NCBI GenBank assembly: GCA_964016885.1 | Contig: OZ024742.1 | Location: 3,038,001-3,102,000, forward strand | Direction of reading: 5' to 3' | From: Eledone cirrhosa | Lineage: Eukaryota | Length of the DNA: 64,000 nucleotides | Part shown: piece by piece, positions 6,683 through 32,706 of the stretch | How positions within the stretch are numbered: position 1 is the first letter of the stretch | Layout of the letters: the number at the start of each line of letters is the position of its first letter | Made by a program: the position numbers and the translations under genes | The notes under the pieces: model-generated | Told to the model about the DNA's origin: nothing | Seen by the model: only the letters and a program-made list of their open reading frames with translations | Databases searched by the model: none

Positions 6683-6737
6683 ACTGCCCGAAGAGGTCAC
6701 GGCCAAAGATGGCTGTGACCGAAATATATATAGCAGT
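6683..6737 (+). ncRNA. Minimal type I hammerhead ribozyme (family B)
   Basis: actgc-CCGAAGA-ggtcacggcca(aaga)tggctgtgacc-GAAA-tatata-TA-gcagt; palindromic stem III; AATAAA immediately downstream. Confidence 0.85.
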
Positions 6738-7047
6738 AATAAACGAAGCCAAATTTTAAACATTTGAATTATTTATTTTATTTTATCTTATATATATATA
6801 TATGTATGTATATATATATATATTAATATAGATATAAATATAAATATATATATATATATATATATATATATATATATATATATATATATATATATATATA
6901 TATATATATATATATATGTACACACACACACACATATATATATATATATATATATAGTAATAATAATAAATTTATTTTAATAAATATATATATATATATA
7001 TATATATATATATATATATATATATATATATATATATATATATATAT

Positions 7048-7251
7048 ATATACACATATATATTACATATCCAATATTCTGTTTCTATATCATATAAATA
7101 TAGTAAATCTATTTCTTCAATGAAACATTTTATCCCTTCCAATATGTCATCTGCATTATTGCCATTATTGCTATATAGAATATATTGTATATACCAATAT
7201 ATTGCTATATACAATATATCGTATATAGCAATATATTGCTATATACAATAT
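7048..7251. repeat. Right arm of the outer inverted repeat (partner 3011-3205)
   Basis: Reverse complement of 3011-3205 with a few substitutions. Confidence 0.85.
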
Positions 7252-8931
7252 GTTCTTTTCATCTCAGTACATACTACATGTAATATACTTTTAACATAAA
7301 AAAACTATATATTGTTTAATATTATATAGTATATAGTATATAATATTATATACTAATAATATTATGTAGTGTATATATAGTATATAGAGTAGAGAGTATA
7401 TATATAGTATATAGAGTAGAGGTATGATAGAGCGAAATATGATTGGAAATAATTTGAACTCCCATTTATTGAGTGGATTTCAATGGATATTGAAATGTTG
7501 TTGTTGTTGTTGGAGAAATGTTAAACAAAAAACAAGAAAAGAGAAACTAATAAGAATCACATAATTGATTAGTGTGCGAAAACTGTTCTGCAATTCAATT
7601 AGCAGCTTACTGAAGCCAATATATAAATCTGCCTGGAAGATATAATCCACACGCACATGTAAACACACACATACATATACACATACGCATAAACATACAC
7701 ATACACACACGGGGGTCCTCATTTCTTGTAGAAATACATCATTGTGTGAACAGCCTTATCTATCTATCTGCTCAACCATTGAGTAAATAACACGAGACGA
7801 ATGTGCCATGAGAAATAAATCGATATTGAAACTAATGTTTATCGAGTTTCATAGACGTTGGATTTGGTGGCAAAACCTAGAACAAGAAATAAAATAAACA
7901 AAAAGCCCAGAAAAAAAAATTTGACACGTGATATGTTTGAAATATTGTTTTTTTCCTCAAGGCTGCCGAAAATCTGACTTGATACTTGCAGGTTATTGAT
8001 ATATATATATATATATATATATACACACACACATACATAGATATATGCGTGTGATGTGTGTATGTGACGTTCTATTTCCTTTATCCAATCTTCGTTGTGT
8101 TTTTTCTATAAATCCCTTTTTTCAAATATTTCATCTAAGAAAGCATCCAAACGCAACATAATTCTCTATTAAAATATAGATAAACATTATTTATCTGCAA
8201 GTAATTGCTGTTTGCATTATCCAATTCAAGGTAAATTTTGATATTTACAAATATGGTGCTAGAAATGTAAATAAAGGCATTTGCAGAAAATAAATTGAAG
8301 AAACTAAGATATATAAAAAATGTGTTTATTGAGAAGCTTTTTCTTATTCGGACAATAACATAGCAAAGATAATTTCTATTCAATATTCTCGGGTGGTTTT
8401 TCTCTCCATGAATAGAATACTTCGGCATAACATAAACCCTCCATAAATAAACAAAAATACAAACAATAAAACAATTTGATGACGATCTTATGAAATGGAT
8501 CGAATTTGATCCTACATAAATTATATATATTCTATATCCTTGAACGTAGTCGCATTATCTTTGATATATATTATGCGACTGTGAAACACAAATATATGTC
8601 CTTCTCCACAAAGTATTATCATTTTTTTTTTTATAAAGAAAGACATTTGCCAATATTTTACTTATTAATGCAACTGCCAAAAAAATATATATATACATTT
8701 TCAGATCAAATTATGAGCAAAATGATAAAGTAATGCATTCGTTGGAACCAAGAGAATTTATAAACATCCCAGCTTAAAACACAGAAGATAAATTGTAATC
8801 CAAATTTTGTTGGATGAAAAAGAAATTCGTTTGTAAATTGATTTTCAACTGAAGCGATATTATGTAGAAAGAGGAAACATGTTTTTAAATATAAAAGAAA
8901 TGGTAGCATTAAGGATTTTTTGTAGACGTTC

Positions 8932-29295: not shown

Positions 29296-30822
29296 GTAAT
29301 ACCAATAAATTTGAAGACTAAAATCCAAAGAGGGCTCGATAAGGATAAATATATATCAAATATATAAGAATCGTAGAGCAAATATTTATTAAAATAACAG
29401 ATTAAAGTTTAAGCAAAGAATCGCTGCTTTCACCATTAACGGGATCTTCTGAAACTAACAAAGTCAATCTGTGAACACAGAAGTGAATATTTCAAAAAAC
29501 GTTTCAACCGGAGGAAGACAGGAAGATGATACTTTGGTTCGTGGAAACGTTCCCTGGCAAAGAACGGAAAAAAGCGAATATAATACGTCATTATTTGGAC
29601 CGGTGAAAAACGCAAAGACAAAACCACGTTTATGGTATAAAAGAAGTCGTAGACTAATATTCTATTAGGTGGTTCATAGAGACGTTCTCTGGGAATGAAT
29701 GAAAAAAAACGAAGATAATACGTCATATGTGGAGCGTGGAGAACAATTGCACGCAAAGACAAAACCACGTAAATGGTATAACTGAAGTCATAGACTAAAA
29801 TTCTAACTATGAAACCGCAAGAATCTCGGCTTCAGAGTAAAGAATAAGTATATAAAATACAGAGGTAATTGAAATTAAATAAATACATACACGCATCCAT
29901 ACAATAGCATACGCGAAAACATTCGCGATTGGTATACAAATACACGCACATATGTGTGTGTGTGTGTGTGCGTGTATACAAATAATTAAATACGTATATA
30001 ACAAGCGCACACACATACCTACATGTAAATACACATATGTTCGGATACGACGTCAACCATAACACGAAGTACACATATACACACATCCTACATACGTACG
30101 AACCCGCATACTCACACAGACGCAAAACTCACGTATACACATAACCAAAAGCATATGTACCAGAATATATAAAATATACGTCATAACATATACAATCCAA
30201 TATACGTTCGAGAAAGTATACGTACCTTCACAAAACATACAGATAATATATACTTACCTATACAAAAAAGTAATGGTATAAACATAACATATACTTAGCT
30301 ACCACATCAAGACGTAAAATATATGCGCATAGATCGTACTATCCGTTAGGGTATAATGTCGGGCTGTAATAAAGGAAAGTTTTGTGCAATTTATGTTTAC
30401 AAGCCGAAATTGCCTCAGATTTTTTGTTTAAGATGTGGTCTTTGACGTAGAATATTAGTCTAGGACTTCTTTTATACCATAAACGTGGTTTTGTCTTTGC
30501 GTGTAATTGTTTTTCACCGCTCCAAATAATGACGTATTTATATTCGTTTTTTCCATTTCTTTGCCAGGGAACGTTTCCACGAACCAAAGTATCGTCTTCC
30601 TGTCTTCCCCCGGTTGCAACATTTTTGAAATATTCACTTCTGCGTTTACAGATTGACTTTGTTAGTTTCAGAAGATCCCGTTAATGGTGAAAGCAGCGAT
30701 TCTTTGCTTAAACTTTAATCTGTTATTTAATAAATATTTGCTCTACAATTCTTATATATTTGATATATATTTATCCTTATCGAGCCCTCTTTGGATTTTA
30801 GTCTTCACATTTATTATTATTA
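29296..30822 (-). mobile_element. Naiad-like PLE 3' fragment with inverted pLTR (30451-30822)
   Basis: GIY-YIG end LNKKSEAISACKHK at 30339-30450; UTR contains a ~125-bp internal duplication; hammerhead at 29406-29456 (-). Confidence 0.88.
30664..30714 (+). ncRNA. Hammerhead motif (family G); copies at 29406-29456 (-), 32635-32685 (+), deleted version at ~30977-31016 (-)
   Basis: agttt-CAGAAGA-tccc(gttaa)(t/g)ggt-GAAA-gca(9 nt)tgc-TT-aaact. Confidence 0.65.
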
Positions 30823-30865
30823 CTATATATATATATATATATATATATATATATATATATATATA

Positions 30866-32706
30866 TAGTGATAAAAATAAAATTGAAGACTAAAATCCAA
30901 AGAGGGCTCGATAAGGATAAATATATATCAAATATATAAGAACCGTAGAGCAAATATTTATTAAATAACAGATTAAAGTTTAAGCAAAGAATCACCATTA
31001 ATGGGATCATCTGAAATAAAAAAAAGTCAATCTATGAACGCAGAAGTAAATATTTCAAAAAACGTTGCAACCGTAGGAAGATAGGAAAACGATACTTTGG
31101 TTGGTGGAGACGTTCCCTTGCAAAGAACGGGGTAAAAAATAACAATACGTTATTATTTGGAGCGGTGAGAACAATTACACGCAAAGACAAAACTATGTTT
31201 ATGGTATAAATGAAGTCGTAGACTAATATTCTATTTAGGTGGTTCGTGGCGACGTTTCCTGGCAATGAACGGAAAAACGAAGATAATACGTCATTATGTG
31301 GAGCAGAGAGAATAATTGCACGCAAAGACAAAATCACGTTTATGAAATAAATGAAGTCGTAGACTAAAATTCTATTTAGGAAACCAAATGAATCTCGGCT
31401 TCAGAGTTAAGAATAATGTAAATAAATTACAGAGGTTATTGAAATCAACAATAATTAAATATATACATGCACGCACCCATATATGTACATACACATGCGT
31501 ACGCGAAAACACCCGCTATGGGCATGCATATAGAATCACGTACATAAAAACACGCGCACACATACAAAAACCCACGCAACGCCTGTACCCGCACACATAC
31601 GAACGTATACACCAAATACACATAAAAATATATATAAAATATATATATATATGTGTGTGTGTGTGTGTGTGCGTGTATACATATAGTTATATAAACGAAT
31701 ATAAATATACACACATAAATACGTATATATAACACGCGCACACACATACCTACATGTAAATACACATATGTTCGCTAAACTACGTCAACCAAAACACAAA
31801 GTACACATATACACACACCCTACATACGTGCAAACCCGCATATACACACAAACACAAAACTCACGTATACACATAACCATATACACATGTACCAGTATAT
31901 ATAATATAATATATACACCTATAACAAATACAAGCCAATATACGTACGAGAAAGTATACGTACCTTCACAAAACATACAGGTAATATATACTTACCTATA
32001 CAAATAAGTAATCGTATAAACATAAAATATACTTAGCTACCACATCAAGACGTAAATTAACCGCGTATAATTCGTACTATCCGTTAGGGTATAATGTGGG
32101 GCTGTAATGCAGGAAAGGTTTGTGCAATTTATGTTTACAAGCCGAAATTGCCTCAGATTTTTTGTTTAAGAAGTGGTCATTGGCGTAGAGTATTTCCAGG
32201 GCTTCAGCGGCGCAGAGGTCACATGGTCTTTTATTTCCGTTATACGATCTAGCCTAAGCTAGGATCTCCGAGTGTAACCTATATTGGGTGTGGTTGTCTT
32301 TTAGACTCTAGATATAAGCTGAAAGTGACGTCATATTTCTTCTTAAAGGGTTAAGAAAAGAATGGGTATGCATGTAAAGACGCTGCTTGAATCTATTGGC
32401 GCTTAACCCTATGTAGGCCCTACGGGACGTGGGTGTTTCAACCTTACATTTGTAAACAATGCTACTAGAGAAGCATTTCCCGGAAAGGGGCAGTCAGCCC
32501 GATTCCTACAATTACAGTTACTACTAGCTGCAGGGTTGCACGTGTTCCTACGGCTAAAGTATCGTCTTCCTGTCTTCCTTCGGTTGCAACGTTTTTCGAA
32601 ATATTTACTTCTGCGTTCACAGATTGATTTTTTTAGTTTCAGAAGATCCCGTTAAGGGTGAAAGCATTGATTCTTTGCTTCAACTTTAATCTGTTATTTA
32701 ATAAAT
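30866..32706 (-). mobile_element. Second copy of the same PLE family with GIY-YIG (32078-32550) and inverted pLTR piece (32555-32706)
   Basis: Minus translation CNCRNRADCPFPGKC..IVYKC..AYIGLS..FKQR..CDLCAAE..LNKKSE, with stops. Confidence 0.88.

Follow-up and report, generated by a model that had tools for sequence, protein, structure and literature searches.

Can a hammerhead ribozyme that has lost the U at position 4 of its core still serve the retrotransposon that carries it? The question is raised by a stretch of 64,000 nucleotides (nt) from Eledone cirrhosa (GenBank assembly GCA_964016885.1, contig OZ024742.1, positions 3,038,001 to 3,102,000 of the forward strand; the window, numbered from its first letter), in which several families of Penelope-like elements (PLEs) carry type I hammerhead motifs with the core CCGANGA or CAGANGA in place of CUGANGA, that is, with C or A at position 4 (C4 or A4 instead of U4). 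A preliminary description had proposed that these substitutions were fixed, in every copy, in four unrelated families. On balance, the evidence compiled here favours a more differentiated explanation, according to which position 4 would have changed in the founders of some PLE families, the C4 motifs of families B and H and of part of family C being slow but selected, and the A4 motif of family G being crippled and carried by one large burst.

Position 4 across the genome and within families

The genome (3.0 gigabases) was searched with family patterns that left position 4 free, and the bases at this position were counted by eye in the first 100 matches by coordinate, referred to below as the matches listed; except for G, the family letters were assigned in this analysis. 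Reversed-pattern controls returned 0–8 genome matches, against hundreds to 20,513 for the true patterns. Family B (18321, 13710 and 22388 in the window) has C4 in 100/100 listed of 141 matches to a narrow pattern; a generic pattern gave 4,996 matches (8 for its reversed control), and 96 of the 100 listed belong to family B, 95 with C4 and one with U4. With the whole core left free (3,367 matches), 97 of the 100 listed were in register (95 C4, 2 U4), the other three rows being two non-homologous and one out of register. Family G (20,513 matches) carries A4 in 100/100, and family H (150 matches), overlooked in the preliminary description, has 90 C, 7 T and 3 G among 100. Family C (10390; 2,563 matches) is mixed, with 39 C4, 61 U4 and neither A nor G, and family A (6688; 2,053 matches) has U4 in all 100. 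Fixation in every copy, as originally claimed, thus stands for the listed copies of B and G and falls for A and C. The C4 of the copy at 6688 is a private change, ordinary decay in a U4 family. The preliminary description had itself named U4 in the family as the outcome that would refute it, and this is what family A shows, although the segment 6683–6737 of that family was the RNA it had put forward for assay. The supporting argument that a T-to-C change creating a CpG runs against the direction of decay fares no better, as C4 has turned into T in only 2 of 97 B copies, and isolated copies with C4 are seen within U4 families (6688, 5473 and L148). Further C4 copies were seen in small, sparsely sampled families (L040:5737, L194:3731 and L128:9782).

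A relaxed descriptor, applied to a sample of 100 evenly spaced 10-kilobase (kb) stretches (1.0 megabase (Mb), chromosomes C1–C7 only), found 113 motifs, compared with about 2 per Mb in shuffles. Canonical U4 is the state of most families in this sample; its 87 C3-G8 motifs comprise 66 with U4, 16 with A4 (all family G), four with C4 and one with G4. U4 is absent from 21 of the 87, so that a strict CUGANGA search does miss the variants, as had been anticipated, and in practice such descriptors overlook about a quarter of the C3-G8 motifs in this genome. The density of hammerhead-like motifs is some 110 per Mb, in about 50 clusters, many of which have very long stem II inserts.

In family B, C4 is kept across subfamilies that are only 66–94% identical in the adjacent 3′ untranslated region, a comparison in which many rows were chosen by core pattern and from which 23 rows of low upstream identity and four chimeric rows were dropped. 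Among 30 loci picked without core constraint, with a variant defined as a second allele above 12.5%, no shared variant falls in the 18 columns of the core and inner stem III, compared with 49 of 168 columns upstream (Fisher p = 0.003). With the core unconstrained, the remaining core features (G5, A6, G8, A9, G12, A13, A14, A15.1-U16.1, H17 and C3-G8) are present in 25–30 of 30 per position; variation gathers instead at 10.1/11.1 (the first pair of stem II), in loop II and in outer stem I. Those changes most often shared in the stems preserve a pair as G.U. Because core and stem III are without shared variants while the upstream columns vary, the lack of subfamily-level change in the core and the palindromic stem III suggests selection on a C4 ribozyme. 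In two public contigs with the same organism label, X1 and X4, which may derive from the source sample, no alternative letter reaches 2% at 18321–18327; positions 18328 and 18347 are variable. Contigs from two further organisms were too sparse to be of use, and no RNA data set was listed among the public records searched.

Family C has amplified subfamilies of both kinds, some marked by U4 and others by C4, with 5 changes on the tree compared with 16.6 after shuffling; the tree comprises 49 rows chosen so that each of the four haplotypes was represented, and in some of these rows the upstream sequence is non-homologous. A young, well-supported U4 clade is nested among C4 rows, which suggests a reversion if the midpoint root is right. 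The two subfamilies, near-identical in sequence, constitute a natural test pair.

Family G is homogeneous, with end branches of about 0.025 and without covariation in its stems, and the core features named above are present in 38–41 of 41 per position; it is one young burst, whose A4 motif may be dead. Matches with other bases at position 4 number 1,237 (82 T, 12 G and 6 C among 100 listed). A U4 subfamily of G was considered and ruled out: when 18 T4 loci were retrieved, 17 turned out to be fold-back junctions with position 4 at their centre, and the remaining one a junction left by truncation. A hotspot of fold-back inversion thus lies exactly at this position (L232–L250), where the three flanking bases on each side are complementary, and extrapolation gives about 1,000 such junctions genome-wide. 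The 5′ junctions near the predicted cut site peak at it and one base beside it (27/100 by hand count), of which stem I self-complementarity explains 10. Stem I of G is extended by 7 base pairs (bp) past an internal loop (30639–30645 with 30717–30723), and loop II could pair with either strand near this loop, a possible tertiary contact.

Folds in the window and the elements that carry them

All variant and canonical cores placed in the window by the preliminary description were recovered at their stated positions (Table 1), and the motifs lie in the 3′ ends of PLEs. Its description of the folds as well paired goes too far. Position 4 aside, families A, B, C, G and H all have the type I topology (CUGANGA, GAAA and UH segments, stem I open), and the motifs exceed chance: a strict descriptor gave eight matches in the window, three of them scoring 12–15, compared with about 0.5 in a shuffled window, where scores did not exceed 10. 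The G10.1-C11.1 pair, however, is present in family A and replaced by a mismatch in B, C, G and H; in the window all variant copies but 6688 are mismatched there (A.G; A/U in the copy at 22388, whose stem II is decayed; U.U in G), and the copy at 31013 has lost GAAA and half of stem III. Stem III is palindromic in A, B and H, family G having instead a 5-bp hairpin. Cofolding predicted an intermolecular stem III helix for A and H and a different dimer for B. An Rfam scan gave no hammerhead family among the 150 of 313 matches listed, for the canonical copies as for the others.

Table 1. Hammerhead motifs and endonuclease remnants in the window.
Feature	Positions	Strand	Remarks
Hammerhead of U3-A8 family	5469–5560	+	window copy also C4
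Family A type I hammerhead	6683–6737	+	core CCGAAGA at 6688; G10.1-C11.1; palindromic stem III; C4 a private mutation
Family C hammerhead, inverted partner	10161–10238	−	core CCGACGA at 10228; C4
Family C hammerhead	10380–10457	+	core CCGACGA at 10390; C4; A.G at 10.1/11.1; belongs to minor C4 subfamily
Canonical U4 core (comparison)	11077–11125	+	CTGANGA at 11082; stems decayed
Family B hammerhead, inverted copy	13667–13715	−	core CCGAAGA at 13710; C4
Family B open reading frame remnant	14385–15770	+	end of reverse transcriptase, CxCx5C linker, GIY-YIG endonuclease; stops and frameshift
Family B hammerhead	18316–18364	+	CCGAAGA at 18321; C4; A.G at 10.1/11.1; 8-nt palindromic stem III; predicted cut after 18359
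Hammerhead of older family B subfamily	22384–22430	+	CCGAAGA at 22388; C4; stem II decayed
Canonical U4 hammerhead, family D (comparison)	27846–27885	+	CTGANGA at 27850; downstream of different PLE endonuclease
Family H hammerhead, 3′ half	29137–29196	+	5′ core removed by truncation; family mostly C4
Family G hammerhead-like motif	29406–29456	−	CAGAAGA at 29451; A4; U.U at 10.1/11.1
Family G hammerhead-like motif	30664–30714	+	CAGAAGA at 30669; A4; U.U; stem II 3 bp; stem III 5 bp; U17
Family G copy, incomplete fold	30975–31018	−	CAGATGA at 31013; A4; deletion of GAAA and of half of stem III
Family G GIY-YIG endonuclease remnant	32080–32555	−	89% to L085
Family G hammerhead-like motif	32635–32685	+	CAGAAGA at 32640; A4; stems I and III decayed

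Families A, B, C, G and H each have an endonuclease on the same strand 0.9–1.6 kb upstream of the motif. The GIY-YIG endonucleases of the variant families are about 40% identical between families, so that the families once described as unrelated are indeed separate by endonuclease but distant relatives. In a tree of 56 rows, all copies from this genome, B, C, G and H are separate, the deep branches are without resolution, and G groups with a U3-A8 family (support 93); separate origins of the position-4 changes across families are likely, not proven. The CxCx5C linker, together with CxxC and CxH flanking conserved E and N, is found in B (in the window) and in G (L085), DKT in the longer B relatives L128 and L139, and RWR, at the place of the RWK motif of the Hydra clade, in L139; (TA)n adjoins the 3′ ends of B, C and G copies. 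By these hallmarks B and G fit the Hydra clade as described by Craig et al. 2021, and C and H have related endonucleases. A Pfam search found nothing in any of the six open reading frame pieces.

The region 25360–27640 of the window holds inverted and direct remnants of a different PLE with a C-x4-C-x2-C linker, a canonical U4 motif lying about 210 nt past its endonuclease. Fragments of the U3-A8 hammerhead occur near 11671, 13400 and 19620, and the genome has at least four U3-A8 families; the endonuclease of locus L047 is 98% identical to that of the window U3-A8 copy at 5469–5560, and this locus carries U4. A TA/TATG microsatellite of great length, strongly skewed in GC, extends over 36000–41000.

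Slow, dead or compensated ribozymes

How a C4 motif might be retained can be rationalized from the role of the residue it replaces. U4 touches the A6-N7 phosphate (PMC3088659), and the catalytic groups of the hammerhead are G12 and the 2′-OH of G8 (PMC6155905); the role of U4 would be structural rather than catalytic, so that C4 should lower the rate without abolishing cutting, and the C4 form is likely a slow but working self-cutter. Family B would cut as a dimer, between tandem terminal repeats and by way of the 8-nt palindrome in its stem III, and even a slow C4 ribozyme could still process tandem transcripts. The motif lies within about 60–110 nt of the element 3′ end, and the predicted cut site is still contained in ordinary inserted copies, which means that reverse transcription would have used RNA uncut or re-ligated there; for both reasons, low activity is likely tolerated. 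In family G, the combination of A4, U.U, a 3-bp stem II and U17 would probably fall below useful activity, and the A4 form is probably crippled.

A number of observations weigh against a selected, working C4 ribozyme. The column test in B assumes independent columns, comes from one chromosome arm, and leaves G8 just below the 12.5% threshold. G8 is in fact changed in 8 of 97 B copies listed, above the other core positions; it is possibly a mutation hotspot. Two-sided compensatory changes are lacking in B, which has one-sided wobbles only, and one shared stem I change leads to U.U; stem I of the older subfamilies is reduced to 3–4 bp with wobbles, and the 10.1/11.1 mismatch, whose identity varies by subfamily (A.G, C.A, C.U, C.C or U.U), constitutes a second defect. 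The predicted minimum-energy folds of B and G differ from the hammerhead fold, and in the pairwise mutagenesis of another hammerhead, mutants of the CUGA region were poorly active except for the 3-8 swap (PMC9901934). A dead G8 sub-lineage within B was considered separately and ruled out, as the G8C copies fall in different subfamilies.

A rival view, which we consider somewhat doubtful, is that all non-U4 motifs are catalytically dead and hitchhiked with successful masters, their conservation reflecting another role of the 3′-end structure, e.g., binding of an element protein. That the motifs of B, G, H and C depart from the consensus at two places, the homogeneity of G without covariation, the frequent G8 changes in B and the fact that 5′ junctions are not clearly enriched at the cut site predicted for G all agree with it, as do the Naiad PLEs, which thrive and amplify without canonical hammerheads (PMC8557442). 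It sits poorly, however, with the nature of the conserved B columns, which are the single-stranded catalytic nucleotides and the palindrome, whereas 10.1/11.1, loop II and outer stem I vary; with the residual activity of U4C (PMC3088659); and with family C, which amplifies both states and has only pyrimidines among the 100 listed. That all variants are private post-insertion mutations in decayed copies is a virtually negligible prospect: true for 6688 and likely for 5473 and L148, it is refuted for B, G, H and C by their counts across the genome and by the way in which C4 copies cluster within family C.

The opposite view, that the variants are fully active and lineage-specific, the 10.1/11.1 mismatch or a tertiary contact compensating for position 4, appears distinctly improbable. 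Among the 12 families whose first stem II pair is mismatched, 4 have an established non-U4 state, compared with none of the 12 in which these bases pair (one-sided p = 0.047; clusters of at least three copies sorted by hand, one AT-rich tandem repeat being excluded as a judged false positive), a marginal statistic on related families, and the extended stem I of G with its internal loop could pair with loop II. Most mismatch families nevertheless keep U4, U.U is common in U4 Hydra PLEs (PMC8557442), and B tolerates many different mismatches. Among pairing-filtered matches listed from viral contigs, hammerhead-like folds were found in 77/134 with U4 and G-C at 10.1/11.1, in 5/121 with C4 and G-C and in 7/120 with U4 and U.U, and in none of 120 with C4 and U.U or of the 118 scored with A4 and G-C. 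C4 is rare but natural, and A4 was not seen among the viral matches scored; in the viral contigs, an obligate coupling of C4 to the mismatch is not supported, as the C4 folds there have G-C.

Relation to known hammerheads and meaning for the elements

Work of Lunse et al. from 2016 reportedly concerns small PLE hammerhead variants and may predate the present observations. Family-wide C4 or A4 in PLE hammerheads was not found in the literature searched, which included part of Fig. S3 of Cervera and De la Pena 2014 and the Hydra motifs of Craig et al. 2021. U4C is already published for a viroid; what appears new, to a degree that earlier work may lower, is its family-wide occurrence, along with A4, in PLEs.

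Like the hammerheads of Hydra-clade PLEs (Craig et al. 2021, PMC8557442, File S2, which lists a Hydra family from Octopus bimaculoides), the motifs described here are of type I, lie near the 3′ end and have a short or palindromic stem III, and frequent U.U at 10.1/11.1 and (TA)n targets are shared as well. In contrast, all Hydra motifs in File S2, found with a general descriptor, read CTGA, whereas here B and H have C4, G has A4 and C is mixed; the range of mismatches in B is likewise foreign to that list. The minimal hammerheads of metazoan PLEs (Cervera and De la Pena 2014, PMC4209133) resemble the present ones in that they lie in terminal repeats, have a palindromic stem III, are predicted to cleave as dimers and form many families per genome, a U3-A8 variant being present in both. 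Their consensus is CUGANGAH with G10.1-C11.1, and the text and Fig. S3 rows covered show no position-4 variant. PLE hammerheads are reported to cut weakly, as dimers (PMC4209133; PMC6765202). U4C itself occurs naturally in a viroid, where in vitro activity is much lower and infectivity is retained (Ambros and Flores 1998, as cited in Perreault et al. 2011, PMC3088659); a U10.1.U11.1 mismatch is reported in the same source, U.U being the best-tolerated mismatch at this pair. There U4C concerns rare viroid and microbe variants, whereas here it occupies thousands of animal retrotransposon copies, in combination with the mismatch; the passages of that source covered here do not mention A4.

Whether PLEs need their hammerheads is an open question, which the natural test pairs of this genome address: B has retained C4 while its subfamilies diverged, and G rose to more than 20,000 copies with A4. 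It is a speculative and rather unlikely proposition that Hydra-clade elements repeatedly attenuate their 3′ hammerhead by changing position 4, to C or even A, in a mismatch background, and that such non-CUGA ribozymes work; if it were true, the ‘invariant’ U4 would be a rate dial between transcript processing and intact template, set in tens of thousands of copies. If the C4 and A4 cores work, the hammerhead consensus would be widened; if they are dead, cleavage would be dispensable for massive amplification.

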